The position numbers and the translations under genes are program-made. Below the pieces are notes generated by a model, which was not told where the DNA came from, did not search any database, and saw nothing but the letters and a program-made list of their open reading frames with translations. A stretch of DNA of 64,000 nucleotides from a virus. The stretch covers positions 132,677-196,676 of the IMG/VR virus record IMGVR_UViG_3300048997_000130. One strand, 5' to 3'. This document shows, in pieces, positions 6,304 through 63,947 of this stretch. Positions within the stretch are counted from its first letter, which is position 1, and the number at the start of each line of letters is the position of its first letter.

Positions 6304-6840
6304 TTATTCTTCCATAGTTCCACTAATTATAGCTTCTGACCAAGCGTCTGTAACATCAGATTCTGTCAGATGTCTACCATATTGTTTCATTGTCGCAATT
6401 AACATATGTTTATAAGCTATCGATTTACATTTTTTCCAAAGTTCCCATAGACTCGGACCATCAATTATTATTCTATTTGGAGTTTCCGGACATAACAGTC
6501 CAACCAATTTAAGATTGAGATTATCAAAAAATGATTTCGGATCTTCGCTTAACACACTAAATGATTTTACAATTATGTCTTTATTGTCACATTCTATCGA
6601 TATATCGACACAAGGTCGAAGCTTAAAAGTAGCTATTTTTTTATAATCACAATAAATTATGATGCGTAACGTGGCTAGTTCTAAATCAATGATTATTTCA
6701 TGTGGATTAGTCCTCCCTTCCATTCTCACAATTGGCGGTATTCCATATAAACTGCCAGTTGTAGCCCCTTGAGCGCCAGCAAAAGACCCAGATATTGGTG
6801 TTGGGCCTACAGGGACTGATGATTTAATGATCGGAATCAT
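6304..6840 (-). CDS. hypothetical protein, C-terminal tag family
   Basis: Ends AIISGTMEE. Confidence 0.7.
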   Translation of the reverse strand: MIPIIKSSVPVGPTPISGSFAGAQGATTGSLYGIPPIVRMEGRTNPHEIIIDLELATLRIIIYCDYKKIATFKLRPCVDISIECDNKDIIVKSFSVLSEDPKSFFDNLNLKLVGLLCPETPNRIIIDGPSLWELWKKCKSIAYKHMLIATMKQYGRHLTESDVTDAWSEAIISGTMEE

Positions 6841-7103
6841 TTAAGTAAGAATTGTAACGTATCACGCACTACCGAATTCCTATGTTTAATAGCTTCGGCA
6901 CTATCCGGATCCATACCGCCTGAATATAAATCTGATTCTTCAATAATGGCTTCCATAGAATCCAGTAAATTATCTTTATTAATCATCGACAATCTGGAGA
7001 AAAACACATCTTGGACAGTCATCACAGGTTGAACTTCTGAAGTGTCAACTTTCTTTTCATTGGACACGGAAGAAATCCTTGGATTCCCGATTAATTCATG
7101 CAT
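6837..7103 (-). CDS. hypothetical protein
   Basis: 88-aa ORF, overlap-coupled to 6304..6840. Confidence 0.6.
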   Translation of the reverse strand: MHELIGNPRISSVSNEKKVDTSEVQPVMTVQDVFFSRLSMINKDNLLDSMEAIIEESDLYSGGMDPDSAEAIKHRNSVVRDTLQFLLK

Positions 7104-7130
7104 TGATCAGCTCCATCATAAATATTACAT

Positions 7131-7421
7131 TTACCATCCATTATCAGTGGATTCAGGCTCAGCTTCGATAATCGGACTCCCGCAACGAGGACATTCATCA
7201 GGAACGATTCCGGATTCATGGTCTATTAATGGGTTCCAACCACAATGTGTTCCTTTTACGGATAATACATGAATACATGGCTGATGTTCCCCACAATCAC
7301 ACGCATATCCAAAATCAATGTTGACGTTGGGATCAAATTTTTCAACCATTTGCACAACATAAATATGTCCATGATCCTCGACGGTAGTTGACCATTTAAA
7401 CCAAGTTGTGCAAGCCCGCAT
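7131..7421 (-). CDS. Cys/His-rich small protein (possible Zn-binding)
   Basis: CDCGEHQPC, HCGWN, CPRCG. Confidence 0.6.
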   Translation of the reverse strand: MRACTTWFKWSTTVEDHGHIYVVQMVEKFDPNVNIDFGYACDCGEHQPCIHVLSVKGTHCGWNPLIDHESGIVPDECPRCGSPIIEAEPESTDNGW

Positions 7422-7486
7422 TTTTTCTCTAAATATTGATAAATAAATCCATCATTAATTTTCGTCTTAATTGTCTTCAGTTAAGA

Positions 7487-7711
7487 TTATTGAGATAACA
7501 GAATAGCTAGAATCAAACTCGCTTGTGCGGAAACATACACCGGATTACCATTCATTACGTTATATATAGTTATCGAAACCAATGGGCTTCGAAACTTAAT
7601 ATATTTTAATCGGAATGGAATTATTCCACCGGACATGGAAATTTCCATATCAGCTGAATTATCTGTGTTCCATTGAATTAATTCAACACGATCCGGATAT
7701 TTATCCGCCAT
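7487..7711 (-). CDS. hypothetical protein
   Basis: 74-aa ORF. Confidence 0.5.
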   Translation of the reverse strand: MADKYPDRVELIQWNTDNSADMEISMSGGIIPFRLKYIKFRSPLVSITIYNVMNGNPVYVSAQASLILAILLSQ

Positions 7712-7743
7712 CTTTTGAAAAAGATTTTGAATGACTGTATTAA

Positions 7744-8013
7744 TTAGAATATCCAGCCAAGTTGATGAGCGTTGGGATGATGAAGCTCGATATTCATGTG
7801 TGGTACTCCATCTTTAGATTGAGAATGGATTACCCCGACAATATATAATTCAAGCATCATAATAGTCTGAGATTCTCCATGCTTATCTTTATAAAAAACC
7901 GGGCCCTTCGCTTGGACTCGTTGCCCGATTTGTGGAACTCCTACGAACAGATTAGGGAATTTAACGAATTTGAAAATATCAATACTAGTGTGACAGTGGC
8001 CTTTAATAAACAT
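7744..8013 (-). CDS. hypothetical protein
   Basis: 89-aa ORF. Confidence 0.55.
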   Translation of the reverse strand: MFIKGHCHTSIDIFKFVKFPNLFVGVPQIGQRVQAKGPVFYKDKHGESQTIMMLELYIVGVIHSQSKDGVPHMNIELHHPNAHQLGWIF

Positions 8014-8078
8014 ATGAGAAAATACATAAATTATCAGCCAATTTCCGGAGATTCTACTATCTGATTTATATATGATGA

Positions 8079-8723
8079 TTGGAATATCATATGAGCCTCA
8101 ATTGCCAATTAACTATTAAAGGATGTGGAGCTGGAGCCAGGAATGGGAAATTGGTGCATGATAAGACGGGCCCAGTATCAGATTTCCTTCGTGATAATCA
8201 ATATTATTATCGGACAGTTCAGAATCATTTAATTGAATGTAAGAAATGCGATCCACAAGAAGCTTTGGAAGGGTTCTTACAAAATCGCAATTCCACTAAA
8301 AAATTTGGTCAAACGTCCCAGACGTTGATATTGATGGCTTTATCATATGAAAAACGCTTTGCTCAATATGTCAAAGAAGAGACTATTGATGAATTCGTCA
8401 TGCGCGGCCTAATAGAAGCTCCTGAATGTTTTATCAATGAAGAATTGCGTTTAACAGATAATCAACTTTTGCAAGCTTTGCGCTGGTCGCACTATGCGAT
8501 TTGGGCTTTTCGTTCACTTAAACGTAATGTTTCGTATCCTGTCGGATTCGAAAAATTTATTGATATCGTAAAACATGGGATTTGGCGAGGACGTTCTATC
8601 GTTATATCTAGACGTGTCCGAACACTTTGTGATATTTGTCTGGCGATTGAAGGGTTGGAAGTCTTGCCGTGTGATGAAGACTTGCAGAAATTGGCAGTGA
8701 TTGGATCGATTATGGGAACATGA
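8079..8723 (+). CDS. hypothetical protein, C-terminal tag family
   Basis: 214 aa, ends VIGSIMGT; ATGA-coupled to the next gene. Confidence 0.7.
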   Translation: MEYHMSLNCQLTIKGCGAGARNGKLVHDKTGPVSDFLRDNQYYYRTVQNHLIECKKCDPQEALEGFLQNRNSTKKFGQTSQTLILMALSYEKRFAQYVKEETIDEFVMRGLIEAPECFINEELRLTDNQLLQALRWSHYAIWAFRSLKRNVSYPVGFEKFIDIVKHGIWRGRSIVISRRVRTLCDICLAIEGLEVLPCDEDLQKLAVIGSIMGT

Positions 8724-9241
8724 CAACCATTGAAATTGATTGGTTCCAAAAACCGGATACTTCGTTTCCAATATTTTCGCATTCCATTCAGCTTGAAATT
8801 CAAGGACTGGATGCTGGATTAACTACATTCCAAATCAATATAACATTTGATATGAATCTAAATTTTCATATCAATGTGAAATTATGTGGCCCGTTATTTG
8901 ATATATCTTCTCCAAGCCGGCAAATGCAAACGCGATCATATAATAATTTCAGTTCTGTTTTTACGCTAAAGGAACTGTCTAGTCAAGGACTTGACAATAA
9001 TTTGCATCGACTGGCATCTAATGCTGTCCATTGTTTCACTTATTTAAATCTCGATGTATCGTTATTCGATCCGGTTCTTGCTCAAATTAAACAATCATTT
9101 CAACAGCGTCTATCAATATTGATTCGAGCGCATATTACTCAACAACTTATCATGGTTGTGGGTTTGAATGCATACATACCGGATGATGAAATAGATTCCA
9201 TAATTCAAACTATTCGTATTACGTCTGTTCTAAGTTCTTAA
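8720..9241 (+). CDS. hypothetical protein, tandem paralog array A
   Basis: Ends YIPDDEIDSIIQTIRITSVLSS (tag variant). Confidence 0.7.
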   Translation: MTTIEIDWFQKPDTSFPIFSHSIQLEIQGLDAGLTTFQINITFDMNLNFHINVKLCGPLFDISSPSRQMQTRSYNNFSSVFTLKELSSQGLDNNLHRLASNAVHCFTYLNLDVSLFDPVLAQIKQSFQQRLSILIRAHITQQLIMVVGLNAYIPDDEIDSIIQTIRITSVLSS

Positions 9242-9772
9242 ATGGCTATTATTAAAGGATCTTGGATAATCAATATTGATGCGAATAAACCCAATATTGT
9301 ACGAGAATTTGAATATCAATTTATTTATTCCAATCAAATAAACGCTATAAACGCTTTGATTATATCTGTTGATTTCATATCAGAGCCTAAAAAAGCATTT
9401 GTTGATGTTCGAATGAATATTATTAGGCATAATTTCTATCAAAAATGTCTTGTTCACTACAATGAATTCAAGAATCCCTATCATTTGCCATTGATACTTG
9501 CTTTAAGACAAACTCGAGAGTTCTTGGATTCAATTGATGCTGCTGGTAGTTATGTAAATATGAATGACGTTTGGAAAGTTGATAAAGATAAATTCATATG
9601 TGATATAAAAGATTGTATTTTTAAGGAACTTTCAGAATTCTTACCAATTGTTGTTCGGAACCATGCTCGGAAGTCCCTTACTGATTTGCATGGTTTTCCT
9701 GGGCTTTTATCTGATTCCGATATCGATGAGCTGATTGCGGAAATCCGAGTTTCTGGAGTTATGAAACAATAA
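9242..9772 (+). CDS. hypothetical protein, array A, tag family
   Basis: Ends LLSDSDIDELIAEIRVSGVMKQ. Confidence 0.72.
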   Translation: MAIIKGSWIINIDANKPNIVREFEYQFIYSNQINAINALIISVDFISEPKKAFVDVRMNIIRHNFYQKCLVHYNEFKNPYHLPLILALRQTREFLDSIDAAGSYVNMNDVWKVDKDKFICDIKDCIFKELSEFLPIVVRNHARKSLTDLHGFPGLLSDSDIDELIAEIRVSGVMKQ

Positions 9773-9796
9773 ATTAAAGAAGGGAATTGGGATTTA

Positions 9797-10285
9797 TTGA
9801 AAATTAATACAATCGTTGAACAAACCAATCATACTCAAAATTCTTTGATATTATTTCGTGATTCGGATGAATTAGTATATGATTTCCCGTACAATATCGT
9901 TAGTTTAGCCAGTATTCAAATAAGTATTGACCAAGCAACATTGGAAGCGACTATTTCAATATGGATTGAAAGCGGAATAGCAGTTTCCGGATGTTTTTCA
10001 CCGTCTTCTGACATAAATCTCGATGTTATTCTCGAACATCTACAGTATAAATTGAAGATCGAAGCAAAATTGATATATGAGAAACAATATCAATTTTACG
10101 CCCAATTTATTGAATATTTAATGGAACAAACTACGAACTTATTAAATAAATATATTCGAATGGCAATTCGTGATAATATTCGTCAACATTTATCACTGAT
10201 AAACAATCTTCATCGATATATTTCAGACGAAGAATATGATATTATACTCTCAGAATCTCGAGTCCGCAGAGTTATGGCTATCTAA
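9797..10285 (+). CDS. hypothetical protein, array A, tag family
   Basis: Ends YISDEEYDIILSESRVRRVMAI. Confidence 0.72.
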   Translation: MKINTIVEQTNHTQNSLILFRDSDELVYDFPYNIVSLASIQISIDQATLEATISIWIESGIAVSGCFSPSSDINLDVILEHLQYKLKIEAKLIYEKQYQFYAQFIEYLMEQTTNLLNKYIRMAIRDNIRQHLSLINNLHRYISDEEYDIILSESRVRRVMAI

Positions 10286-10770
10286 TGACTAAAATTCATA
10301 TTAAATGGATATCTACTTATAGAGAATTGCAATCAGAACTTATTTATGAATATCCTATTGATATTCGAGGAGATGATATAATTATCCCTGTCAATTTTAA
10401 TATTTCTCTTTATTCTTTAAGTATTAATATAAAATTGTGTCTGGATGACAAACTAAAATGGGTTTCTGATATTTATTTCCAAGATTTACGAAATAAAAAT
10501 CCTGACGAACTATTGAAGAACATGCCCGATATGATCGAAGACTTATTTACTAAAAAAGGATGGATGCAAAATATTGATACGTCTCGAACATTAATAAAAA
10601 TTATTTGCAATCGCGTTTTGGACGATTTACAACAGCAACTACAGAATGTGCTCCAAATTTGGACGAGAGATAATATTCGGCAAATTTGTGAATTCTCTCG
10701 TTATATATCGGATGAATTTGTTGATAAAACAATCGCTGAATGTAGAATTAAGCGAATTATGGACGAATAA
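10285..10770 (+). CDS. hypothetical protein, array A, tag family
   Basis: Ends YISDEFVDKTIAECRIKRIMDE. Confidence 0.72.
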   Translation: MTKIHIKWISTYRELQSELIYEYPIDIRGDDIIIPVNFNISLYSLSINIKLCLDDKLKWVSDIYFQDLRNKNPDELLKNMPDMIEDLFTKKGWMQNIDTSRTLIKIICNRVLDDLQQQLQNVLQIWTRDNIRQICEFSRYISDEFVDKTIAECRIKRIMDE

Positions 10771-11313
10771 ATGGATACTTTTCCTATTATAGCTGTTTGG
10801 AGTACCATCAATCCCGATAAAGTCATATCTAAAAACGAATATACGACGTTCGGATTCGGACCACAGATTGAAGAAATTAGAATTAATTTCACAGTGAGCT
10901 CTTATTCTAATTTGAATGTAGAAGTGGGAGTAATATTTATCTCTAAAAATCTCGGCCAAATTGATGAATATAGAACATTATATTCATCCGACATGTCTAA
11001 ATCTGGGATTCAATCATTTTTAAATGAATCTCGGAATTCATTATGGGCTGAATGCAAATTAAAACATATTGAGAAATGGAAAATCGCTCCGACAATTAAC
11101 ACAGTTAAAGAAGTCAATCAGCAACTATCCAAACTTCTTGATATTATTAACGAGATAATATCAAATGAATTAATGATGAAGCTCCCTGAATGCGCAGCTC
11201 GTTATTTGAAATGGATTGTTAAAATTATTCATGAGTTGCCTGAATTGTTATCTGATGAGACTATAGACGATTATATTAATAGGTTCCGAGTAAATAGAGT
11301 GATGGAATCATAA
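10771..11313 (+). CDS. hypothetical protein, array A, tag family
   Basis: Ends LLSDETIDDYINRFRVNRVMES. Confidence 0.72.
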   Translation: MDTFPIIAVWSTINPDKVISKNEYTTFGFGPQIEEIRINFTVSSYSNLNVEVGVIFISKNLGQIDEYRTLYSSDMSKSGIQSFLNESRNSLWAECKLKHIEKWKIAPTINTVKEVNQQLSKLLDIINEIISNELMMKLPECAARYLKWIVKIIHELPELLSDETIDDYINRFRVNRVMES

Positions 11314-11759: not shown

Positions 11760-11786
11760 CGGCCCTTGGTGGAATCGGCAGACACG
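11760..11786 (+). pseudogene. 5' half fragment of a tRNA-Leu-like gene
   Basis: CGGCCCT-TG-GTG-GAATCGGCAGA-CAC-G is an acceptor strand plus a Leu-type D-arm; no matching 3' half seen nearby. Confidence 0.5.
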
Positions 11787-12506
11787 ATAATAACTAATAT
11801 GTATAAGAGCAATAATCATAGATCTAAATATTCATATAATATCGAGATCTTTGAAAAATCTGACCCGATTGCTTATTATATATTAGGAGTTATTGCTACT
11901 GACGGTGCTTTGTTTGAATCATCAAGATACAGGATGTTTAAGATTGATTCTAAGGATAAAGATTGGTTGGAATCAATACGAGACATTATAGTTCCTGGCA
12001 AACCTCTTTACGAATATAAAAATAAAAATCTTTATACACTGTCTATTTATTGTCGTCCAATATTTGATTGGGTTAAATCTAATGGCATGACGCCAAATAA
12101 AACGTTGACTCTAAAGATGCCGAGGATAAACCATTTTTATTACCGAGATTTTTTGAGAGGCGTGATTGATGGTGATGGTTCCGTAAGTCTTTGCAAAATG
12201 AATGGTTACGACAGTGTGTATATGAAAATAATTACTGCCAGCGAAGTATTTGCAAATGAATTGAATTTTATTTTATCAGAATTATTTGAAAAGCCTACCG
12301 CTTTCACAGAAATTAGACATAGTAAATTGGCTAAGCCAAGTTCTCCTACAACTCGTGCATTCCGAGTTCAATATGGTGGTCGTAGAGCAGTCAAATTTCT
12401 AGATGGAATCTATTATGATCATAAATTACTTAAATTAGAAAGGAAATTCCAAAATTATATGAAGATAAAACAAATATTTGTTGATACTGATCGTAGGTAT
12501 GACTGA
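11766..12506 (+). CDS. LAGLIDADG homing endonuclease (two motifs; ATG at 11799 is the likely start)
   Basis: AYYILGVIATDGAL and RDFLRGVIDGDGSV motifs; C-terminal KLERK typical of this family. Confidence 0.85.
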   Translation: MVESADTIITNMYKSNNHRSKYSYNIEIFEKSDPIAYYILGVIATDGALFESSRYRMFKIDSKDKDWLESIRDIIVPGKPLYEYKNKNLYTLSIYCRPIFDWVKSNGMTPNKTLTLKMPRINHFYYRDFLRGVIDGDGSVSLCKMNGYDSVYMKIITASEVFANELNFILSELFEKPTAFTEIRHSKLAKPSSPTTRAFRVQYGGRRAVKFLDGIYYDHKLLKLERKFQNYMKIKQIFVDTDRRYD

Positions 12507-12512: not shown

Positions 12513-12598
12513 GCCCTGGTGGTGGAATGGTATACACTCCGCGCTTAAAACGCGGCGCCTTAGCCGGATTGTGGGTTCGAGTCCCACCCAGGGTACCA
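12513..12598 (+). tRNA. trnL: tRNA-Leu(UAA)
   Basis: GCCCTGG/CCAGGGT acceptor, CCGCG-CTTAAAA-CGCGG anticodon arm, long variable arm, GGTTCGAGTCC T-arm, encoded CCA. Confidence 0.93.
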
Positions 12599-12745: not shown

Positions 12746-13015
12746 ATGATATTTTTGAATTTTGGATATTTATTTGATACTGTGACAACGTCAAATAAAT
12801 TATCGATCAATCCAACTGTTCATCAATCAGGACATACTGTCCTTGATGAGCGTAATGCAAATTGGTTTAAGCGACTCCCTGTCCACAAGAAAGTGGACTA
12901 TTTTATCAAAAATGGGATGGGAATTCGAGCTATCGCTAAAGAACTGCATCTGCCTAAGAAGACAGTTCGAGCTATTCTGCATAGTAACGTTCTGAAGGAT
13001 GTCATGCAATCGTGA
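12746..13015 (+). CDS. helix-turn-helix protein with C-terminal tag
   Basis: GMGIRAIAKELHLPKKTVRAIL; ends VLKDVMQS. Confidence 0.7.
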   Translation: MIFLNFGYLFDTVTTSNKLSINPTVHQSGHTVLDERNANWFKRLPVHKKVDYFIKNGMGIRAIAKELHLPKKTVRAILHSNVLKDVMQS

Positions 13016-13135: not shown

Positions 13136-13339
13136 ATGGCAGCGGTCATGAACTGGCAAGAATCTAAATCTTGGTGGTCATTGTCGAACGACGATAAAAA
13201 TCGACTTCGCTCTCGTATTCAAGAACTTCGCCAAGAAGGTTTCATGGTTCGTTCAATCGCTAAATGGCTTGGAATCACTCGTTTAGTTGTTCGAGATTGT
13301 TTGCATGAAATTTTGACATCAGAAATCATGGATTCTTAG
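13136..13339 (+). CDS. helix-turn-helix protein with C-terminal tag
   Basis: GFMVRSIAKWLGITRLVVRDCL; ends TSEIMDS. Confidence 0.7.
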   Translation: MAAVMNWQESKSWWSLSNDDKNRLRSRIQELRQEGFMVRSIAKWLGITRLVVRDCLHEILTSEIMDS

Positions 13340-13792: not shown

Positions 13793-14383
13793 ATGTCTAA
13801 TACTTCTCCATCCAGTCCGAAAGAGAAAACTCCGGAACAAGTCCGTCAGGAATTTCTGGAGATGATACATTTCAATATTCGATATTGGTCCAGCCATTCA
13901 TTAGAGAAGTCCGTGGAGGATCGCTTAAAAGGTCTAGCTTTTTCAATACTAGTGGCTATAGATGGGAATCATGCAGGCCTCCCCGCATTTATTTTGGCCC
14001 CTAATCCCGATTCTACTGATAAATCTCATCATATTAAGATGAATGAAGATTATTTTCCCGAACAAATCACTAATATCCGATGTAATATTTCAGGATCTCT
14101 CCAAGATGCACTTTATGGGATTCCGACTCCACAATTGATAGAACCAGACAGTAATCCTTATATCTGTATGGATTGCGGTCAAGATGGTTCTAGTGAGTTG
14201 GAATGTCTACATTGCCATAGTAATCAAGTATTTAATAAATACGATAACGGATGGACTTGTAGGGTTTGTAAAAAGGAGTTATCGAGCAATTACCTATCCA
14301 TCTGTTCCACAAAATGTCAAGAAGAATTTATTCAATTCGGAGAAGAGTGCTTTCCAAGTTTGCCTGTTAGCCACCCAAAGTGA
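13793..14383 (+). CDS. hypothetical protein with Cys-rich C-terminus
   Basis: CMDC, CLHC, CRVC and CSTKC in the C-terminal third. Confidence 0.7.
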   Translation: MSNTSPSSPKEKTPEQVRQEFLEMIHFNIRYWSSHSLEKSVEDRLKGLAFSILVAIDGNHAGLPAFILAPNPDSTDKSHHIKMNEDYFPEQITNIRCNISGSLQDALYGIPTPQLIEPDSNPYICMDCGQDGSSELECLHCHSNQVFNKYDNGWTCRVCKKELSSNYLSICSTKCQEEFIQFGEECFPSLPVSHPK

Positions 14384-14708
14384 ACTCGGACTCGAACTCA
14401 CTGGAGTTCTGGATAGGAATCTTATTCATAAGCTCGGTCCAATAGCCTTCTGCGCTAAAGGACTTTATAATTCCGGATGCACTCATTTAATCGATTGGAC
14501 GCATATTCCTAATATCTGTCAAAAGCCCGTTGGTCCCATTTTATTATATATTGTCAGCCCAAAAATTCGACCAGGAACCGGATTCTTTGTCCAATCTTGT
14601 ATTGATCATCATATGCAAGATGTCCAATTGACTGATCTTTGGTTCATTCGCAAACCAAATATTGAAGAACTCAATTCCTATTATATTCATACCATCATGG
14701 ACATGTAG
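14184..14708 (+). CDS. hypothetical protein, tag family (true start probably GTG 14380)
   Basis: Ends YYIHTIMDM. Confidence 0.6.
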   Translation: MVLVSWNVYIAIVIKYLINTITDGLVGFVKRSYRAITYPSVPQNVKKNLFNSEKSAFQVCLLATQSELGLELTGVLDRNLIHKLGPIAFCAKGLYNSGCTHLIDWTHIPNICQKPVGPILLYIVSPKIRPGTGFFVQSCIDHHMQDVQLTDLWFIRKPNIEELNSYYIHTIMDM

Positions 14709-14710: not shown

Positions 14711-15073
14711 ATGGTTTCCGATTTGATGATAACCAAAGAATCATGTGCTCTTAAATATTCAATTCGTCAACTCCAACAACAATTAAATTTAGAGCCTGAT
14801 GGCGAACTCACAGCTTTATTGATTCCAGCTTTGAAACCTGGTTTATTTTTCCCTAAATATTTAAATTGTAATTTTGAACACAGTATAATATGGCGCTGTC
14901 AACGGCCAGCTTACGGTTTCGTTCTATTTCATGATATCAAACCGGAATCACGCATTGTTGTGACATGTTGCGAACAACATCCAATATCAATTGTTAAATT
15001 CGGTTGGAATTTCCGATTGTTGACGAGTATTGAACGATCAGAATTAATTATTTTGCAAATCATGAATTCATAA
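14711..15073 (+). CDS. hypothetical protein, tag family
   Basis: Ends LIILQIMNS. Confidence 0.68.
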   Translation: MVSDLMITKESCALKYSIRQLQQQLNLEPDGELTALLIPALKPGLFFPKYLNCNFEHSIIWRCQRPAYGFVLFHDIKPESRIVVTCCEQHPISIVKFGWNFRLLTSIERSELIILQIMNS

Positions 15074-15120: not shown

Positions 15121-15675
15121 ATGTCTCCAAGAACTGGTATTATATTCTTGCTTGAGAATCTTCAAATTGCCTCCGAAATTGGCAGAGTTGCCGAACGTTT
15201 GGCCGGAGCTCGATTGTTACATGCTCAACTGAATATATATGAGCCTCTCATCGATGGTCCTGATAAATCTTTAAGGTTCAGTCATTTTTTCCATATTTCT
15301 GATGGACTAGATAATCAGTTCCTTACTCAATCTTTGTTATTGAGTTTCCCGCAGTTATGTGATGTTGATCTGGTTCGCAATATTAGTGATACCAATCATA
15401 TAAATACTCCCGGGAGTAAATCTGCATATTCCACTCTCATTGACTATGTTGACAATCAATTCCGGACGCAACTTAGAGAAACCAAAGCTCGATTGAATTT
15501 GGAATTCGAGAAGTTCCAAAAAACTGATGCTTATAAACAGCAACGTATTCGGAAAGTCCAAGATTCCGCTCGTCAAGAACTCCAGAAATACTTGATACGA
15601 TATGCGGAGCTCGATGATGAATTTATCCGCAATACGATGGATACATTATTGATCCGAGATACAATGGAGCAATAG
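15121..15675 (+). CDS. hypothetical protein, tandem paralog array B, tag family
   Basis: Ends YAELDDEFIRNTMDTLLIRDTMEQ. Confidence 0.75.
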   Translation: MSPRTGIIFLLENLQIASEIGRVAERLAGARLLHAQLNIYEPLIDGPDKSLRFSHFFHISDGLDNQFLTQSLLLSFPQLCDVDLVRNISDTNHINTPGSKSAYSTLIDYVDNQFRTQLRETKARLNLEFEKFQKTDAYKQQRIRKVQDSARQELQKYLIRYAELDDEFIRNTMDTLLIRDTMEQ

Positions 15676-15677: not shown

Positions 15678-16262
15678 ATGGGAACCTTATCTGATTTTGA
15701 ACATTCAACTATCGCTCAAATAGTATTTAAGACTCCGGAATTATCGATATTATTGAAAAAACTTCCGAATATTTTGAAGAAGATTCGCCTACTAGATATT
15801 ACGTTAGATATTTCTAGAGAATTCAATTCTGATAATAATTCATTCTCATGTTCTATTAAGAGACGCCATTTATTATTGATTAATGGGAAAGAAATTATAA
15901 AATATAATATTTCCAATATCGGATTTTCAGATACACAACTGGATGCCGACGTCAGGGCTATTATTAGATCAAATTCTCCAATATTCTATACAGAAATGGA
16001 TTATCAACGAACTATCAATCATTTAGAAAATTTGATTAATTTGGAATTCCAAGAACATCGATTCCGGAGCCAGACGAGGATCTATCGATTAATTAAACAA
16101 TTTGTAAATACTTCACAATTCCAAACGTATCAAACAACAACCATTCGCAATGCAGCCACTCAAGACATATATTCAGTCTTGTCTGCTTATTCGCATTTGG
16201 GAGATGATTTCATAAAATCATCAATCGATACTTTTTTGATTCGCCATACGATGGATATGTGA
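15678..16262 (+). CDS. hypothetical protein, array B, tag family
   Basis: Ends YSHLGDDFIKSSIDTFLIRHTMDM. Confidence 0.75.
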   Translation: MGTLSDFEHSTIAQIVFKTPELSILLKKLPNILKKIRLLDITLDISREFNSDNNSFSCSIKRRHLLLINGKEIIKYNISNIGFSDTQLDADVRAIIRSNSPIFYTEMDYQRTINHLENLINLEFQEHRFRSQTRIYRLIKQFVNTSQFQTYQTTTIRNAATQDIYSVLSAYSHLGDDFIKSSIDTFLIRHTMDM

Positions 16263-16826
16263 ATGGCTAAATCGTTCGATTTTGATAAAGGCGTTGCAGC
16301 CATTTACGCGTCTGATGAATTTGCAACGATATCTAAGGGACTGGAATCCAGTATTAAATCTCTCAGATTTTCCGATGTCCGATTTGATGTATTCATACAG
16401 GAAAATAAATCTAAGTTAAAGATCAATGTAATATTTCTAATCCATGCAGGTGAATGCTCTGTTATAGCTCACCGCAATTTTAAGATCCGATGCAGACAAA
16501 TCATCGGGCCTTTGAACTTATTATTGCAATTTGGCCAAATCCTTGAACCATATTGTCAAAATATTCAAATTGATATTGTGAATCAATTCTTGGATACAAT
16601 GGATATTCGATTTGAAAGCATCATTGAAGAAGCCAGTATACGACTCCGGAATCAATTTTGTGAATATTTGGAAAAACCCTATTTTAAGCAAAAGAGAACA
16701 GAAGCTGTTGTAAGTTATGCTAAACAAGAAATGGATAAATTATTATCTATATTTTCTAATTTGGATTTTGAAACTTTGCAGTCTATATTTAATGAATCAA
16801 TGGTTCGTAATATAATGGAACAATAA
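16263..16826 (+). CDS. hypothetical protein, array B, tag family
   Basis: Ends FSNLDFETLQSIFNESMVRNIMEQ. Confidence 0.75.
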   Translation: MAKSFDFDKGVAAIYASDEFATISKGLESSIKSLRFSDVRFDVFIQENKSKLKINVIFLIHAGECSVIAHRNFKIRCRQIIGPLNLLLQFGQILEPYCQNIQIDIVNQFLDTMDIRFESIIEEASIRLRNQFCEYLEKPYFKQKRTEAVVSYAKQEMDKLLSIFSNLDFETLQSIFNESMVRNIMEQ

Positions 16827-16827: not shown

Positions 16828-17442
16828 ATGAATGATCCTGTGATCAATAAAATGATAAGAAAAATTTGTTCTTATCCAGTTATTACAACAGTAATTAATA
16901 ATCATAAAGACATTATTATTAATTCAAAAATTATTGAATTCCAGTGCGAATCTGAACTCGGCATGACGCCCAGCAAATCGTTTGTCATTGCTACTACGTT
17001 ATACGCGATTGTTCAAATTTCTGAGCAGAATTATCTCATGGCATCTGAGACTATAGAATTACTCTTGGATTGGCATCCGTTTAAGGTTCAAGATATTATG
17101 CAATCGTTAGTCAATGAAGTTATCATTAAATGCGTTGAAGCGATAACTATCCAGTTCGATAGAATACTGACTGAGTCTGAATTATCATATGTTAAACTCC
17201 ATATCTATGACTTCATTAATACTACCAATTCCGAAGTTCTTAAGCAAAAATTTGATATGTTCAAAACCCAAACCAATGATTTCATAAAATCGGCTGCATT
17301 TGAACAACTACGTCGTAAGTCCACTATTAAAATTTTTGAATCATGTCTGCATGGATTCATGGGCGCATTTGAAAGCATTGATGATAACGTGATGCGCGCG
17401 GCTTTCAATTCATACTTTGTTCATACTATTATGGAATCCTGA
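16828..17442 (+). CDS. hypothetical protein, array B, tag family
   Basis: Ends FESIDDNVMRAAFNSYFVHTIMES. Confidence 0.75.
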   Translation: MNDPVINKMIRKICSYPVITTVINNHKDIIINSKIIEFQCESELGMTPSKSFVIATTLYAIVQISEQNYLMASETIELLLDWHPFKVQDIMQSLVNEVIIKCVEAITIQFDRILTESELSYVKLHIYDFINTTNSEVLKQKFDMFKTQTNDFIKSAAFEQLRRKSTIKIFESCLHGFMGAFESIDDNVMRAAFNSYFVHTIMES

Positions 17443-18117
17443 ATGCCATCGGCTATATCTCATAGAGACCCAGTCTATCATTATTTAGATATAGCCAATT
17501 TATTATATGAAACTGATACTATTCAACATTTAGTCAATTCATATATATCATATTTATCAAAATTAGAAGTTTGGGGGTTCACTATCGATTTTAATATTGT
17601 ATTGCGCAAGGGTTATGCTATGTTGTCGCCAAAAGTCCTAATGAATATTGGTCAATCTTGCAGTTCTGGGATTCTTGTTTATGATATGTATTCAGGAGCT
17701 TCTTTGCATACAATATTAAACTGTTCCAGTTTATCAATTATCTCGGACAAAATCTTACGTGGTGTTGTTACTAAATATGCAATAACTAAATATTCTGGTC
17801 AGGAATTAGAATTATTTATAACTCAATTTATGGCATATCAAGGTAACATTCAATTTTCCGGAGGATTCCCACAATTTGTGACTACTAAAATCAATAATAA
17901 TACTTCTTCGTTATTGAATGACACAGTCGTTCGATTATATGGAAAAATCGATGTTATCAAGAATAGTGCAGAATATAAAAAGCGCTACAACGAAGCTTTA
18001 GAAGAATCTGCTGAATATGATATTGGTCGATTACTAAATCTATATAAAGATGTTAAAAATTCAGTGCGACAAGAGATCCTTTCTAAATTCATTGTTACTT
18101 CAGTGATGACTGAGTAA
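17443..18117 (+). CDS. hypothetical protein, array B, tag family
   Basis: Ends YKDVKNSVRQEILSKFIVTSVMTE. Confidence 0.75.
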   Translation: MPSAISHRDPVYHYLDIANLLYETDTIQHLVNSYISYLSKLEVWGFTIDFNIVLRKGYAMLSPKVLMNIGQSCSSGILVYDMYSGASLHTILNCSSLSIISDKILRGVVTKYAITKYSGQELELFITQFMAYQGNIQFSGGFPQFVTTKINNNTSSLLNDTVVRLYGKIDVIKNSAEYKKRYNEALEESAEYDIGRLLNLYKDVKNSVRQEILSKFIVTSVMTE

Positions 18118-18149
18118 ATTCGGATTTTCAATTCATATAATATTTTGAC

Positions 18150-19240: not shown

Positions 19241-19440
19241 TGCGTGCTAGTTATAAATTCGGAGTGCGCTGGATAGCAGAAAATGATGAACCCATCGCTC
19301 AAACTCCTGAAGACGCAGTCGGTTTAATATCTATCTTGCTTTTAGCTGATCTGTTTGGGAAAACGCCAGAGATAGTTGCTCGGGATGTTTTTGATTATAA
19401 GAACAAGATGCTGGTGATACGAGACGTTATGGAGTCGTAA
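19237..19440 (+). CDS. hypothetical protein, tag family
   Basis: Ends LVIRDVMES. Confidence 0.65.
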   Translation: MMRASYKFGVRWIAENDEPIAQTPEDAVGLISILLLADLFGKTPEIVARDVFDYKNKMLVIRDVMES

Positions 19441-19451
19441 ATTTTACGACT

Positions 19452-44730: not shown

Positions 44731-44747
44731 ATGGCCGTATTAAGATT

Positions 44748-52522: not shown

Positions 52523-54724
52523 ATGCAACCGCATGCTTATCAACAGCGTGATTTGGATGACTTGCTTGAAGCTGCCAAATCACATCGTAGACTAGCTGTT
52601 GTTCACGCAACAGGGGCTGGTAAGACATTAGTATCAACCCTGTTCGTGCAGAACACACTTGGAAGTTTGTTCACGCATGTGATTAGTGCTACTCCAATGG
52701 ACAGCATCCGAGTTGGATTTGAGCGTGCTATGTATGATATTGGAGCACGAACAGGTTCATCATGGAACGAACTTGTGCATTATTTGCAAGCCGATTCTCT
52801 AGCAAATGTGAGTTATATATGTTGTCACGCATCTATTAATAGACAAGATTCTATATATCAACTACGCCAGTTATTGGACTCCCGTCCCGATTTTTTAAAT
52901 GGCAAACTACTGATTGTTGACGAAGCCCAACACGCTGGTGCTGATGGTTTGTCGGAGTTCGTCGAGCTTTGGTATCAAGGTGGCGGTCATATCCTATATT
53001 TAACCGCCACCCCATATCGAAGTGATGGCCGAACAGTGATTCCTGAAGGAACATTCACTGTATATCGGACAATGTGTCAACAAATGCGGAATGGTTTTGC
53101 TCCTCGAATACTTTGTAGCGAAATCATTGACGTGGGTGGAAAGTTTGTTGAATGTGCTGGCGTAGTTGGTGCTCCGGAAGCCATTGCGAAAACCGCAGAT
53201 GCAATGGTGAGCACTTGGGATAAAGACAAACGCCCATTCTTGATCATTCGAGTCAAGAATCATTCGGATAGTGGATATAACAAACGCGTAATCAACACGC
53301 TTGTCCAGAAATTTTCGGATAGCGGAGCACGTGTTCTGAATGCCACAGATCATCAAACTGAATCGTGTGTGGTTGAACTCCGGAATTTATTGCAGAAAAC
53401 TTCCGAAGGGATTCCGACTCACGACGTAATTATCGGGATCCAAAGAGTGGCTGAAGGACTGGACTGGCCAATTTGTTCCCACATTTATTTATGGGGAGTT
53501 CCCAAGTCATTGCCCATGCTCGTTCAAATTCTTGGACGAGCGATGCGAAGGAAATCTGGGATTGTGGCCGAACAGTGGCGTGATTGTTCCAAATTAGTAT
53601 TATTCACTGCCGGGGTAAATGCGTTAGCACATAGTCGATATATATTACTCACTGCTTATTTACTTTCGGATTTTGCATCCAGCCGTCATATGTCAGCATT
53701 CGAAGAATTGCACGGGCTCATTGATGGACTCCCTGTCCCTGTGCGCCGAGCCGCTAGTGCTGGGCTCTCTTATATCCATGTGCCTGAAGATCTCAGGCAA
53801 GCTATTCGTATTCGAATTGACGCTATATTCAATCGGTTTCGAGACGATCCCGCACGTATTTCTCCGAGACAATTATTGGAAGTGTTGATCCCAGAATTCC
53901 CGGAGCTTTCCAAGAAAGCCGTCCAGCAATTAGTATTGGAGACTTATATGTCTTCAAATCCCAAGGCATTGAATTTGTTCCGAGAACAGCTGCAAGACCG
54001 ATTGTTGTCTGGGAATGATATATCTAAAACTCTGAATGACGCTGTGGAATCAGTACTCATGGAATTTCGTGAGGAAACTATTATTGTTCCACAAAGCCTC
54101 ATAACGTGCCAGATGCATGGGCTTTCTGGAGAATCCATTCAACTGCATTCAGACAAATTACGGCTATATTTATCACCATTATCCGAACAAGATATGTTGC
54201 GTGGTTTTGATCATTTCTTCAGGACTTACAAGCGTTTCCCAAATTTAGGAGATGTGAATCCTATAAACCCATTATATACGTTCGAAACTTATGACAGAGC
54301 GCTTCGTGACGGTGATCGCAGTCTTAAGCAAGTAGACGGCGGATTCCGGCAAGTTGTGCATGAAAGATTCTGGAAGACGCATTCGGTTGGTTCGAATGCT
54401 ACTTGGGCTGAATTATGTGATGATATTCTAGAAAGACTTAAAGATGTTCCGGATCCTAGAAAGATCATGCAACATATTCAAAATACTGGTTGCCCGACGT
54501 TCCATTATTATGGTGCGATTTACAAAGCTTCAGAATTTTTAGAAGTCGCAGATTTATTGAAATTCGGACCGGACGTTGCAGAGTGTATGCTTAAATTAAG
54601 TAAAGTACGATTAAATAAATGTTTGGAAGAACTTATTCAGGCGGAAAGTCCTGAAGATGCTCTTCAAGTCTTATATGCACAGTTCCCTAATAAGACACGT
54701 CCAGACCAACGTCTGGCTTCTTAA
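52523..54724 (+). CDS. SF2 (DEAH-type) helicase without HD nuclease, with a long C-terminal extension
   Basis: PHAYQ, HATGAGKT, IVDEAQH, LTATP, VAEGLDWP, QILGRAMR; the Q-motif is at the extreme N-terminus, so there is no room for a Cas3 HD domain. Confidence 0.85.
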   Translation: MQPHAYQQRDLDDLLEAAKSHRRLAVVHATGAGKTLVSTLFVQNTLGSLFTHVISATPMDSIRVGFERAMYDIGARTGSSWNELVHYLQADSLANVSYICCHASINRQDSIYQLRQLLDSRPDFLNGKLLIVDEAQHAGADGLSEFVELWYQGGGHILYLTATPYRSDGRTVIPEGTFTVYRTMCQQMRNGFAPRILCSEIIDVGGKFVECAGVVGAPEAIAKTADAMVSTWDKDKRPFLIIRVKNHSDSGYNKRVINTLVQKFSDSGARVLNATDHQTESCVVELRNLLQKTSEGIPTHDVIIGIQRVAEGLDWPICSHIYLWGVPKSLPMLVQILGRAMRRKSGIVAEQWRDCSKLVLFTAGVNALAHSRYILLTAYLLSDFASSRHMSAFEELHGLIDGLPVPVRRAASAGLSYIHVPEDLRQAIRIRIDAIFNRFRDDPARISPRQLLEVLIPEFPELSKKAVQQLVLETYMSSNPKALNLFREQLQDRLLSGNDISKTLNDAVESVLMEFREETIIVPQSLITCQMHGLSGESIQLHSDKLRLYLSPLSEQDMLRGFDHFFRTYKRFPNLGDVNPINPLYTFETYDRALRDGDRSLKQVDGGFRQVVHERFWKTHSVGSNATWAELCDDILERLKDVPDPRKIMQHIQNTGCPTFHYYGAIYKASEFLEVADLLKFGPDVAECMLKLSKVRLNKCLEELIQAESPEDALQVLYAQFPNKTRPDQRLAS

Positions 54725-55353
54725 TGTCTCATATTAAACATAACTTTGTTGGAGAAGAAAAGCGCTCCTGGAGGATGCGCAATTTAGAATTTTTACTGCG
54801 TCATCAATCTGATTTATTACTCGAAAATAAGCTTCGAGGTTCCTATATGGAGCTTATTGGAATGAGTGGTAGTGAATTCTATGCATTATTGACGCCATAT
54901 TTACAAAAGCCAACAGATTTTATAGCTGTGGATAGATGTTGTCGAGTTATCCTTGATCATAGGGAAGACATGTCAGCATTTAAGACTATTTTTTCAACCA
55001 GTATTATTGCTGTTGCGCAACGAGAAATACCTATAATACTCAATTATGATGGATATGGGTCAGCCAACAGTCCAAGCTTTTGGAAAAAAGAAAGCTTTGG
55101 AATACAAGATGTAATCCATAAAGGTATCAAAAAATATGGGTGTTTTGCATTTATTTTAAATAAAGTGCTTGGCAAAGCAGATAACGAAACTACACACAAG
55201 ACGTTGTTGGGTTTCAAACAAAAAATCCTCGAACTTGGTCATGGATTTCGCATGTTAGATGCTTTTGAACCAAGTTCTGATTGTATGATTCTAGATATAT
55301 ATCGGGGTAATGGCCCTAGGATGATTACTTTTCGTACATTATTTGTTCGATAA
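54724..55353 (+). CDS. hypothetical protein, possible class I SAM-methyltransferase-like fold
   Basis: TAATG-coupled to the helicase; SYMELIGMSG (beta1/motif I-like), FIAVDR (acidic end of beta2), ILNYDGYG (beta4), terminal YxGxGPRM. Confidence 0.4.
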   Translation: MSHIKHNFVGEEKRSWRMRNLEFLLRHQSDLLLENKLRGSYMELIGMSGSEFYALLTPYLQKPTDFIAVDRCCRVILDHREDMSAFKTIFSTSIIAVAQREIPIILNYDGYGSANSPSFWKKESFGIQDVIHKGIKKYGCFAFILNKVLGKADNETTHKTLLGFKQKILELGHGFRMLDAFEPSSDCMILDIYRGNGPRMITFRTLFVR

Positions 55354-55702
55354 TCATCCCTTGTTTTTTGACAAATTATGCGTTGATGCGATTATCGGAA
55401 AATCGTTGATCAACGAATATCTTTAATCAGCTCCCATAAGCCGTAGGTCAGAATTATAATTCTACTTGCGAAGATTAACTAAGTTATTTCTTGAGCTTTC
55501 AGGGACGTTGCAAAGATATTTATGATTTTTTGTGGTGGTTTAACCACCACTTGATTAAATTATTTGGTGCGAGTGATCCAATAATTATTAATTATGCTGG
55601 ATGCTCGATCCCAATCAAGAATATACTGAATTTTAATATTCATGTAATTTCTCGCAGGAAATTTTCGAAGAAAATTTCCGACAATTATTGTTGAATATCT
55701 TT
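55354..55702 (+). promoter_or_regulatory. CRISPR leader-like AT-rich region with a candidate sigma70 promoter and two palindromes
   Basis: TTGACA 55368 with TGcGATTAT 16 nt later; GTGGTGGTT-T-AACCACCAC 55532..55550; GGAAATTTTC-GAA-GAAAATTTCC 55657..55679. Confidence 0.45.
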
Positions 55703-61403: not shown

Positions 61404-61475
61404 GGGCTTGAAATGTAATGGTTGCATACCGGCCTTTTAAGCCGTGAAGAGCGGGATCAATACCCGTCAAGCCCA
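61404..61475 (+). tRNA. trnK: tRNA-Lys(UUU)
   Basis: GGGCTTG/CAAGCCC acceptor, CCGGC-CTTTTAA-GCCGT anticodon arm, T-loop GATCAAT. Confidence 0.82.
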
Positions 61476-61592: not shown

Positions 61593-61597
61593 CTCTC

Positions 61598-62043: not shown

Positions 62044-62044
62044 A

Positions 62045-62383
62045 TTATAGACTATCTATCCATTGTTGATGACTCGCATCGATTTTATCACCAAGTTCTG
62101 TTATTTGAGGCTTTACGGCTTCTAATGCTTTATGGATGATATTGGCTTGCTGAATTTGTAAACTCACAATTTCTTCTGGAACGTCATCTTCTTCTTGTCC
62201 CCTTTGGGCGTTTACAACAATAGCCTCTGTAAACAATTCCATGACTTCTTCTATTCGTTCGTATTGGCTAATAATATTAGCCAATTCTTTTATATTATTG
62301 CCAGCGGCCACTCGAATAGCGATTTTATCAACGTTCATGATTATTCTTCTTTGATTACTCAAAAATGTTTTAGATGTGCGCAA
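62045..62383 (-). CDS. acidic helical protein with N-terminal IAxRVAA motif; paralog of the next ORF
   Basis: MNVDKIAIRVAA...QYERIEE. Confidence 0.68.
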   Translation of the reverse strand: MRTSKTFLSNQRRIIMNVDKIAIRVAAGNNIKELANIISQYERIEEVMELFTEAIVVNAQRGQEEDDVPEEIVSLQIQQANIIHKALEAVKPQITELGDKIDASHQQWIDSL

Positions 62384-62398
62384 CTATGATTCTATATG

Positions 62399-62776
62399 TT
62401 AAGCTGGTTCATCCAGAACATTAGTTTCAGGTTCTCTTATAATTTGTTCGATTTCATCACTGATTCGTGTGAGTTCGGGTTTCAATTTCTCTAGAGCTTG
62501 ATGAACCATTTTAACCTGGCTCATAGTCAAATCAAAGGCTTTTTCAGGAATGCCTTCATCTAACACAGTCTGGGCACTCATAACCAAACCTTCAGTATAT
62601 ATATCGATAGTTTCCTCTACCCTTTCATATTGACCGAGAATATTAGCAATTTCTTGGGAGTGATTGGCGGCAACTTTGGCGGCAATTCGTTCTAAATTCA
62701 TGATTAATATTTTGTATATCCCGTGCAAGACTACGTATACCGAGACGGCCTGAAGGGCAATTCGTTCTAAGTCCAT
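62399..62776 (-). CDS. acidic helical protein with a duplicated N-terminal LERIA motif
   Basis: MDLERIALQA...MNLERIAAKVAA...QYERVEE. Confidence 0.68.
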   Translation of the reverse strand: MDLERIALQAVSVYVVLHGIYKILIMNLERIAAKVAANHSQEIANILGQYERVEETIDIYTEGLVMSAQTVLDEGIPEKAFDLTMSQVKMVHQALEKLKPELTRISDEIEQIIREPETNVLDEPA

Positions 62777-62788
62777 GATTAATATTTT
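62681..62788. repeat. 33-bp direct repeat (62681..62713 and 62756..62788)
   Basis: GGCAATTCGTTCTAAATTCATGATTAATATTTT vs GGCAATTCGTTCTAAGTCCATGATTAATATTTT, 31/33 identical. Confidence 0.88.
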
Positions 62789-62836
62789 ATATAAGCGGGT
62801 TAGTAAATTATTCGATAATGATGTTATTTTATATTA

Positions 62837-63214
62837 ATGAAGAAATACAAGCAAATAGGATTACGGAGATATATTCCGCCGAATCAACTAACGGAACAAT
62901 TTATCCAACATTTGCTTGGACATGGGATGATGACAATTTGGACTGGCATCAATCGATGGGAACATGAAGCCAAACAAGATTTTGAACGCTTGCTTCAAAT
63001 AGATGGACAAATCCGAAAACAATTCTTGTTGATGCTGAATACCCATAAATTAGATATCAAACAAATAGTAATTATTGTCCATGATGGTTTCATAGAGCGG
63101 CCGTTGACCGTTGATTCCGTTATTCAAATGTATAAATTCATATTTTTTAAAGATCTGGCGACATTTAAGGCATTCCTGGATTTTGCCGCAGTTAGTCATA
63201 TAATGGAATCATGA
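62837..63214 (+). CDS. hypothetical protein, tag family
   Basis: Ends AAVSHIMES. Confidence 0.7.
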   Translation: MKKYKQIGLRRYIPPNQLTEQFIQHLLGHGMMTIWTGINRWEHEAKQDFERLLQIDGQIRKQFLLMLNTHKLDIKQIVIIVHDGFIERPLTVDSVIQMYKFIFFKDLATFKAFLDFAAVSHIMES

Positions 63215-63615
63215 TATATCCGGCGTTAAAACAAATTAAAGTGGATAAATTATCGCGCGAGGCTATTCGATATGTCACTACTCAATCAATTTATAGTGTA
63301 TATATTAAAACGTCCACTTGGATTCTATATCGAAGAAGTTTTAAATATCTACTCATGAATAATACTTCTGTAAGAAGCGCATATAAACTTGCAATTGAAA
63401 AATGGCAAAGAACATTCGAATATGCAGATAGCGAACAATCCAGCGTAGACCAGTTTAATTATTTAAAAGCTCGATTATTGGTGTCCGCCACTAATTTGAA
63501 CGTAACTGACAGTTATCCATTTACTATATATTTATATCTAGCGATTTTTCCTGACATACAATCATTAAGACTGGTTGTTCGAGAATCCGCCATTCATGCA
63601 GTCATGCAGTCATGA
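63211..63615 (+). CDS. hypothetical protein, tag family
   Basis: Ends IFPDIQSLRLVVRESAIHAVMQS. Confidence 0.7.
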   Translation: MIYPALKQIKVDKLSREAIRYVTTQSIYSVYIKTSTWILYRRSFKYLLMNNTSVRSAYKLAIEKWQRTFEYADSEQSSVDQFNYLKARLLVSATNLNVTDSYPFTIYLYLAIFPDIQSLRLVVRESAIHAVMQS

Positions 63616-63947
63616 AAAAAATTATAGAAATATCTGATTTAAATTCGGATTCTATCCTATTTTTGCGACAACAAGCCATTGGTCATTTGCAAGTCAATAC
63701 TGATCTGTGGAATAAATGTGACAAATCATTTAAATATCTTGTAAAAAGTAAAAATTATCATTATGCAGTAACTTATAAAAATATTATATCTAGATATCGG
63801 ATGATGGTCTGCGATTTAATTGAACGTGATATTCAAGTCATAATCCATAAACATCCTGTAATGACTATTTTCTTTATATTTCCTGATAGTAATACTGCCA
63901 AAATCGCTCTACAAGAATCATTAATTGTCCATATTATGGAATCATGA
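63612..63947 (+). CDS. hypothetical protein, tag family
   Basis: Ends IFPDSNTAKIALQESLIVHIMES; ATGA-coupled to a further ORF that runs off the window. Confidence 0.7.
   Translation: MKKIIEISDLNSDSILFLRQQAIGHLQVNTDLWNKCDKSFKYLVKSKNYHYAVTYKNIISRYRMMVCDLIERDIQVIIHKHPVMTIFFIFPDSNTAKIALQESLIVHIMES

Follow-up and report, generated by a model that had tools for sequence, protein, structure and literature searches.

The DNA analysed here, 64,000 nucleotides long and called the window, is the final 64 kb of the 196,676-bp virus record IMGVR_UViG_3300048997_000130 (G000, 40% G+C), which is a fragment and about 44% complete according to CheckV. Thirty-six open reading frames (ORFs) of the window encode proteins that end in a common tail, or tag, with a methionine exactly three residues from the stop codon (position -3). 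The tail is a short linear motif of ~12 residues at the C-terminus and is constrained as a peptide; a common domain of which it would be the end was not detected. Its carriers are a very large set of small, soluble and fast-evolving proteins without known family in a clade of uncultivated megaphages that is related to phage G. The tagged ORFs and the two untagged genes that are discussed below as candidate readers of the tail are given in window coordinates; A and B denote two paralogue families, G001 and G003 are complete relatives, and two other features stand at the end.

6304-6840 (-): tagged ORF of 178 residues with the tail T-M-E-E
8079-8723 (+): tagged ORF of 214 residues, with orthologues in G001 and G003, of which that in G001 is tagged
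8720-9241 (+): family A paralogue with a degenerate tag that has Leu at -3
9242-11313 (+): four tandem tagged ORFs of family A (9242-9772, 9797-10285, 10285-10770 and 10771-11313)
12746-13015 (+): tagged ORF of 89 residues, missed by the greedy ORF selection
13136-13339 (+): tagged ORF of 67 residues
14184-14708 (+): tagged ORF of 174 residues, missed by the greedy ORF selection
14711-15073 (+): tagged ORF of 120 residues
15121-18824 (+): six tandem tagged ORFs of family B (15121-15675, 15678-16262, 16263-16826, 16828-17442, 17443-18117 and 18150-18824)
18821-19440 (+): two tagged ORFs (18821-19240 and 19237-19440)
19984-20385 (+): tagged ORF of 133 residues
21025-22118 (+): three tagged ORFs (21025-21444, 21445-21858 and 21855-22118)
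26533-27027 (+): tagged ORF of 164 residues
27520-28059 (+): tagged ORF of 179 residues
31299-32054 (+): tagged ORF of 251 residues with the top score against the tail profile
32101-33294 (+): untagged MoxR-like AAA+ candidate of 397 residues, with weak AAA Pfam matches only
36601-38154 (+): untagged protein of 517 residues with a DUF2201_N metallopeptidase and a VWA domain, a candidate tag receptor
38452-38766 (+): tagged ORF of 104 residues
40907-41683 (+): tagged ORF of 258 residues, also tagged in its G001 orthologue
42460-43137 (+): tagged ORF of 225 residues, also tagged in its G001 orthologue
44023-45517 (+): four tagged ORFs (44023-44337, 44350-44730, 44748-45098 and 45095-45517)
45948-46376 (+): tagged ORF of 142 residues with a CxxC motif and Cys at -12
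62837-63947 (+): three tagged ORFs (62837-63214, 63211-63615 and 63612-63947)
11766-12506 (+): LAGLIDADG homing-endonuclease-like ORF within a tagged array, directly upstream of a tRNA-Leu(taa) at 12513-12598 (+)
61404-61475 (+): tRNA found with Rfam (52.6 bits) and not reported by ARAGORN, in the tRNA cluster at 61.2-62.0 kb

A peptide motif in fixed C-terminal register

The tail was counted in a set of 127 non-overlapping ORFs of at least 40 residues that were taken from the window by greedy selection. Methionine stood at -3 in 35 of these ORFs and 34 ended in [VIT]-M-x-x-stop. When the residues were shuffled 2000 times, Met at -3 was found in 3.0 ORFs on average and in 10 at most, and the longer pattern in 0.62 on average and in 4 at most. 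A frequency at the shuffled expectation, which the sequence-only reading had named as the result that would speak against a tag, was therefore not observed. Two further tagged ORFs (12746-13015 and 14184-14708) were masked by overlaps in the greedy set, and with these the 36 tagged ORFs of that reading were recovered. In the whole G000 record, Met was at -3 in 51 of 337 ORFs (Met background 2.1%, binomial probability 5e-28), and each of the remaining positions from -1 to -12 carried 2-9 Met. The motif was confined to protein ends. A profile of the last 22 residues, used in a six-frame scan, had its matches exclusively at C-termini, and the seven-residue core motif occurred 87 times at a C-terminus versus 2 times internally in about 420,000 residues. 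A tag-like core was seen in the middle of the family B ORF 16828-17442 (+), at residues ~91-97, and may be the relic of two fused tagged ORFs.

The conserved part comprises the last 12 residues, with a hydrophobic residue at -8/-7, [VI] at -4, M or less often H or Q at -3, usually E or D at -2 and S at -1. The logo of the G000 tails showed [IV] at -7, [IV] at -4, M at -3, E/D at -2 and S at -1, together with a weaker preference for Glu at -10 and for hydrophobic residues at -8, -12 and -16. The last residue is mainly Ser and otherwise Glu, Thr, Gly or Gln, and Gln, His and Leu occur as variants at -3. Acidic residues (Glu/Asp) were enriched at -10, -11, -14 and -18. In four genomes the information content was restricted to the last 12 residues, and in 178 tails of G001 it was at most 0.25 bit beyond -12.

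A recurring gene end could also be a signal in the nucleic acid, such as a ribosome-binding or coupling site, a terminator or a repeat element. This would fit with the 39-53% of tagged genes that adjoin the next start within 15 nt, with the GGA contained in ATG-GAR, and with a terminator-like 12-bp hairpin at 19429-19455 (+) that overlaps the tag codons and the stop codon of the ORF 19237-19440. However, in 27-45% of the tagged genes no start codon follows within the next 60 nt, and the tag is therefore not a coupling or ribosome-binding signal. In the tag, Val and Ile are encoded by all of their codons, Glu and Asp by both, and Ser by the two codon families TCN and AGY; codons other than GA occur at -2, and all three stop codons are used. 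The residues at -7, -8 and -10 are likewise conserved as peptide, and the peptide is kept over a G+C range of 40-70% (40% in G000 and G001, 46% in G009, 50% in G003, 48-52% in L172 and L173, and 70% in L169; these relatives are described below). The codon variation and the G+C range effectively refute a signal at the nucleic-acid level, to which we give practically no weight. The view of the sequence-only reading that the constraint acts on the peptide rather than on the DNA is borne out by the synonymous codons, the two Ser codon families and the use of all stop codons.

Relatives and spread of the tail

The major capsid protein of the record has 298 residues and matches gp27 of phage G (PDB 6WKK, E 3.6e-55); its gene is at 17787-18683 (-) of G000 (L001), outside the window. 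Close relatives of this capsid protein are encoded on 481 IMG/VR stretches, and many of these are contigs of 300-620 kb. The cultured relatives are distant, with a capsid identity of 46% for the Tunturiibacter phage Tunturi_5 and of 35% for the Bacillus phage G. When the DUF2201 protein of the window was used as the query, the complete relative G001 (426,960 bp) was obtained. The complete tagged relatives are G001, G002 (436 kb) and G003 (393 kb), G009 is a partial one, and G004-G006 form a sister clade with a capsid identity of 73-77%. Further tagged relatives are L172, L169 (Logan SRR25435854), with 70% G+C, and L173, a contig of NCBI GCA_036561065.1 with 48% G+C that was binned in a Methylobacter metagenome-assembled genome; the link to Methylobacter is a binning hint only. 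Judging from this G+C range, the tagged clade probably spans very different hosts. No match was found when the phage GenBank records were scanned with one tagged protein and with the window DNA, a search for relatives with one structural protein found none, and an exact-protein look-up gave no recorded entry.

The tag was found on 12-25% of the genes in the 0.2-0.43 Mb phage genomes of the clade. The excess seen in the G000 record was repeated in G001, where Met stood at -3 in 180 of 705 ORFs (25%) versus 5-30 Met at the other positions, and in G003 with 69 of 591 ORFs. In G002, [VI]-M-E-S-stop gave 61 exact DNA matches and the reversed control gave 0. With a looser pattern, 26 and 33 matches were obtained in G007 and G008, and 1-2 in the controls. 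In G009, His at -3 (27 ORFs) was more frequent than Met (18 ORFs). The count of 36 tagged ORFs is thus right for the window and understates a phenomenon of the whole clade. Among the tagged proteins of 60-110 residues in G003 and G009, a Cys at -12 is common, often after a CxxC motif, and His can replace the Met at -3. Examples of this zinc-ribbon-plus-tail subclass, which is rare in G000, are encoded at 365-377 kb of G003 and at 42-59 kb of G009. The tag was not found in the sister clade G004-G006, in Tunturi_5 or in phage G, and direct inspection of the G004 C-termini showed no enrichment of an alternative residue.

The regulatory sequences were also inspected. No intergenic 8-mer was enriched, and sigma-70-like sites were not above shuffles. 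A hairpin-like element was observed at ~19440-19480 (-) of G000, upstream of an operon that encodes a 222-residue protein and the capsid protein. It has a GGATTC...GAATCC stem around a CGC...GGAC-TGAA core, and 46 relatives have it conserved upstream of the gene that comes before the capsid gene. In 3 of 4 genomes scanned, the copy at the capsid operon is the sole one on the capsid strand, and G001 has no exact match. The element is a candidate for a regulatory RNA in the 5'-untranslated region or for a special promoter. It is unique to the capsid operon.

Tagged proteins and candidate readers

We then asked what the tagged proteins have in common besides the tail. When the last 14 residues were removed, 348 tagged proteins fell into 313 BLAST groups, of which 291 were singletons. 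The proteins are small, with a median of 100-155 residues, and slightly acidic, and a membrane-type hydrophobic segment was present in 0-5% of them. Pfam gave no matches for 20 tagged proteins of the window, and among the 100 largest tagged proteins of G001, 3 matched Pfam and at most 7 matched PHROGs, a RuvC being one of these. A word-based homologue search with family B returned the window's own proteins only. A Foldseek search with the family B model and a look-up in a protein atlas gave nothing usable. An exhaustive profile search with 40-residue tails, for which the profile was too short, gave one match to a low-complexity repeat protein that was judged spurious. The profiles of the two largest families of the window aligned in the C-terminal 48 columns only, with a probability of 38%. 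The tagged proteins are hence not detectable full-length homologues of one family, which the sequence-only reading had considered as a possible objection: 291 of the 348 are singletons, and no Pfam or PHROG family is shared. That reading had also noted that the recognisable enzymes are untagged, and this was confirmed for the Cas8c-like, Cas7, helicase, YcaO, HD, AAA-like and VWA proteins, which have other ends.

Tagged genes are arranged in co-oriented tandem arrays, which include recognisable paralogue families with up to 7 members, and within such families the best alignment extends over the C-terminal 50-90 residues. The core that is common to G000, G001, G003 and G009 comprises 56 proteins. 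Only about 6 of the ~50 tagged G000 proteins have any match in G001, whereas the core is in synteny with identities of 40-65%. This shows that the bodies evolve very fast and the handle does not. AlphaFold2 models of families A and B were of low confidence (predicted local distance difference test, pLDDT, 42 and 56); in both, the end consists of a long helix that is followed by a short acidic loop and then by a terminal helix of ~18 residues. The loop followed by a terminal helix was predicted at pLDDT 42-62, and the bodies were predicted as anything from beta-rich to helical.

A known enzyme with the tag is the RuvC-like resolvase of G001, encoded at 54718-55455 (-) (L011:14721-15455), which has the canonical tag on its last ~8 residues. 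The RuvC orthologues of G003 and G009 are 53-56% identical, untagged and have different ends. By this comparison of sequences, the G001 resolvase seems to have gained its tag recently. The M16 peptidase of G001 was rejected as a second tagged enzyme, since it is probably a chance match without a hydrophobic residue at -7.

The two untagged genes at 32101-33294 and 36601-38154 were considered as readers of the tail. The AAA+ candidate has homologues with 49-58% identity in G001, G003 and G009, which is every tagged genome examined for it. In G000, G001, G003 and G009 the AAA and VWA genes are located inside the densest tag regions, and in L169, L172 and L173 they are also found among tagged genes. 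A VWA homologue was placed in G002 and G008 as well, and VWA-bearing contigs number 331. The VWA protein matches DUF2201_N and DUF2201 in Pfam, and its HExxH motif and its metal-ion-dependent adhesion site (MIDAS; DxSxS, T, D) are invariant in 66 homologues. In VWA and integrin I domains, the MIDAS is known to coordinate an acidic carboxylate group of the bound ligand. The AAA/VWA pair was found in every tagged genome examined and was not found in the untagged G004-G006 and Tunturi_5. A complex prediction for the VWA peptidase (66-row alignment, with Zn and Mg) and the tail alignment had a score of 0.00, an outcome that has no bearing on binding either way. Within a few kb of the pair, proteins of the sigma-70 family with regions 2 and 4 are encoded in L169 (6754-7632) and in L170 (14321-15181 and 16603-17835). 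These megaphages probably redirect transcription with sigma factors of their own.

Other candidates were rejected. G000 encodes a stand-alone PDZ domain of ~82 residues at 120790-121218 (-) (L007:6790-7218; PDZ_6, E 5e-10), in an ORF that overlaps a small Zn-ribbon ORF. A PDZ domain was not found in the complete tagged genomes G001-G003 nor in the partial G009, which rules it out as the general receptor; it may be a lineage-specific reader or a decoy for C-termini. For a TPR receptor with a carboxylate clamp, the TPR_16 and TPR_12 models gave only sub-threshold, non-orthologous matches in G009, G001 and G002. The capsid protein has a median identity of 92% in the tagged clade, and the neighbouring structural genes are at 48-70%. 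This hyper-conservation was discarded as a sign of a tag-binding site because the capsid protein of the untagged clade, with 86%, is equally conserved.

Function of the tail and known systems

The reading that we favour, with a little better than even confidence, is that the tail is a modular docking handle for one conserved receptor. The receptor would read the hydrophobic face of the terminal helix and the position of the free C-terminus, and the variable body of each tagged protein would thereby be coupled to a common machine. That hundreds of unrelated bodies carry the same side chain, always equally far from the free carboxylate, points to a common external reader and not to intramolecular packing. 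Since the tag is kept over 40-70% G+C, which implies diverse hosts, the reader should be either phage-encoded or a universal host machine. The strict conservation suggests that loss of the tag abolishes function, which is more in line with an address or a tether than with a simple degron. The sequence-only reading had proposed an address label for capsid packaging, a phage compartment, docking or degradation. The address label as a class, rather than any one of these uses, is best supported, by the fixed C-terminal register, the G+C range and the variable bodies.

Several observations weigh against a docking handle or against the AAA/VWA pair as its reader. The residue at -2 is sometimes non-acidic, the confidence of the AlphaFold2 models is too low to read the exposure of the terminal helix, and the tagged bodies may have a remote common ancestry. 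AAA/VWA homologues with 41-44% identity and no tag nearby occur in L170 and L171, a distant pair is present in the untagged phage G, and VWA homologues are found in N4-like phages. In addition, ~48 core genes are also present with the tag and absent without it; as the sister clade is very divergent, the phyletic argument for the pair is weak. No receptor was established among the PDZ, TPR, capsid and AAA/VWA candidates. That the receptor is the MoxR-like AAA+ protein with the VWA-HExxH metallopeptidase within the tagged arrays is a tentative proposal, and we would sooner expect a different reader. If it holds, the MIDAS site of the VWA domain would bind the acidic tail or the terminal carboxylate, and the pair would process, remodel or degrade either the tagged protein or the partner that is bound to its body. 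Quite unlikely, in our estimate, is the further step that the tail is the handle of a phage-encoded targeted-proteolysis or remodelling system, in which small hypervariable binders, in their hundreds and each with a host protein of its own as target, for example from defence or metabolism, bring these proteins to the AAA+/VWA metallopeptidase of the phage. Such a system would account for fast-diversifying bodies with a frozen handle, and it would be to bacterial viruses what the expansions of F-box/PRANC adaptors are to giant viruses of eukaryotes.

Three other explanations were weighed. In one, the tail is a capsid-loading signal that docks small proteins in the procapsid, on the HK97-fold capsid protein, the scaffold or the portal, so that the arsenal is ejected ahead of or with the genome. 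A capsid of very large size is implied by the phage-G-type major capsid protein, both HK97-fold encapsulin shells and microcompartments receive cargo by way of terminal amphipathic peptides, and a tag that is essential for function suits delivery better than turnover. Resolvases act at packaging in T4, and one RuvC is tagged in G001, but this tag is not common to its orthologues. Moreover, the tagged arrays are long and far from the structural module, among AAA, HD, YcaO, CRISPR and tRNA genes, whereas no tag is found on the structural proteins or on the scaffold-like protein encoded next to the capsid gene. A cargo of 180 distinct species would be without precedent, and the capsid hyper-conservation, being found in the untagged clade as well, is no pointer to a tag site. 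We consider capsid loading unlikely. Less likely again is the hijacking of a universal host machine, where the tail would mimic a host C-terminal peptide that is read by an AAA+ protease or its adaptor, RNA polymerase, a chaperone or a PDZ protein, and would lead to tethering or degradation. C-degrons, PDZ ligands and the tail with which the adaptor SspB binds ClpX typically have such a fixed register relative to the free C-terminus. G000 has its stand-alone PDZ domain, the invariant Met falls at the PDZ position P-2, and conservation from 40 to 70% G+C suits a universal host target. However, the phage PDZ is missing from G001, G002, G003 and the partial G009, and the last residue is polar, mostly Ser, unlike in ssrA-type tails or classical PDZ ligands. 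If it were a pure degron, the tag would be expected to decay readily, but it is near-invariant on hundreds of proteins; in addition, no host is known.

The third explanation is that the tail is the domain end of a single hyper-diverged paralogous superfamily that arose by tandem duplication, in which purifying selection would act on the terminal helix alone, for the sake of folding or self-association and not of an external receptor. The tandem co-oriented arrays with families of up to 7 members and the better alignment of the C-terminal 50-90 residues within families are in line with this, and the AlphaFold2 models suggest a common end of long helix, acidic loop and terminal helix in two families. 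In contrast, the 178 G001 tails hold no information outside their last 12 residues, and the bodies are predicted as beta-rich or helical, some with CxxC and one with a RuvC domain. A structural helix does not need a Met exactly at -3 in 300 unrelated contexts, nor would it be barred from the internal positions at which the motif is so rare (87 terminal versus 2 internal). A common domain end is thus improbable, and we rank it below the capsid and the host readings.

Nearly all tagged genes are 'dark matter' without a family, and the identification of the reader would provide a common pathway for hundreds of unknown proteins at once. It would show how megaphages organise their accessory arsenal, be it by loading, localisation, turnover or adaptor-mediated attack on host proteins, and a portable 12-residue tag for use in such systems could follow. 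The signal is readily testable by experiment, for example by peptide pull-down or a reporter fusion.

C-terminal sorting and docking signals are known in cells, and one on the scale of a proteome is not described for a bacteriophage within the reach of our literature searches. The statement of the sequence-only reading that no such signal is known agrees with this, as far as these searches reached in phages. The capsid targeting sequence of the T4 type is N-terminal and cut by the prohead protease at [LI]-x-E, whereas the phage tag is C-terminal and its [VI]-M-E is only loosely similar. Ankyrin-PRANC (F-box-like) proteins of poxviruses and BTB/F-box proteins of giant viruses also have a conserved C-terminal handle that plugs diversifying viral binders into one degradation machine. 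These handles are folded domains of at least 40 residues that bind host ubiquitin ligases. The phage tag has 12 residues and belongs to a virus of bacteria, and the comparison is one of concept only. PDZ ligands have a conserved determinant at P-2 that is read together with the free carboxylate; the tag has Met, His or Gln exactly third from the end and is exclusive to C-termini. The last residue of the tag differs from that of PDZ ligands in not being hydrophobic. The ssrA C-degrons and the ClpX-binding tail of SspB are C-terminal peptides that are read by an AAA+ machine and mark a substrate or a substrate-bringing adaptor. These tails end with non-polar or basic residues, the non-polar ends of ssrA-like degrons being recognised by ClpX, ClpA, FtsH or Tsp, whereas the phage tag is acidic and then small and polar, and the candidate machine of the phage is a MoxR/VWA-peptidase pair and not Clp, Lon or FtsH.

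The cargo peptides of encapsulins and microcompartments are short, terminal and often an amphipathic helix after a linker, and they dock diverse cargo on one shell; encapsulin shells share the HK97 fold with the phage capsid protein. Their cargo genes are few and adjoin the shell gene, whereas the tagged phage genes count in hundreds and are remote from the capsid module, where the capsid neighbours are untagged. The signal of Dot/Icm (type IVB) effectors in Legionella and Coxiella resembles the tag in that it marks a large share of the proteome, with hundreds of unrelated and fast-evolving proteins. It has acidic residues at about -10 to -18, a hydrophobic residue at -3/-4 and a small polar end, and the phage tag has its enriched Glu/Asp positions from -10 to -18 and [VI]-M at -4/-3. 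The Dot/Icm signal is loose and statistical, however, whereas the phage tag is near-invariant at -3, -4 and -7. Genes for type IV secretion were not noticed among the annotated phage genes, although no search aimed at them was made. A delivery route, if there is one, would have to be the virion or a cytoplasmic machine. From PTS1 (peroxisomal targeting signal 1), a C-terminal tripeptide that is read by the TPR receptor Pex5, the tag differs in its sequence and in belonging to a phage and bacterium instead of a eukaryote; the tagged genomes have no conserved TPR protein in common, and an organelle is not known. It shares with PTS1 a very short signal at the extreme C-terminus, a fixed register, many unrelated soluble carriers and weaker preferences in the dozen residues upstream.

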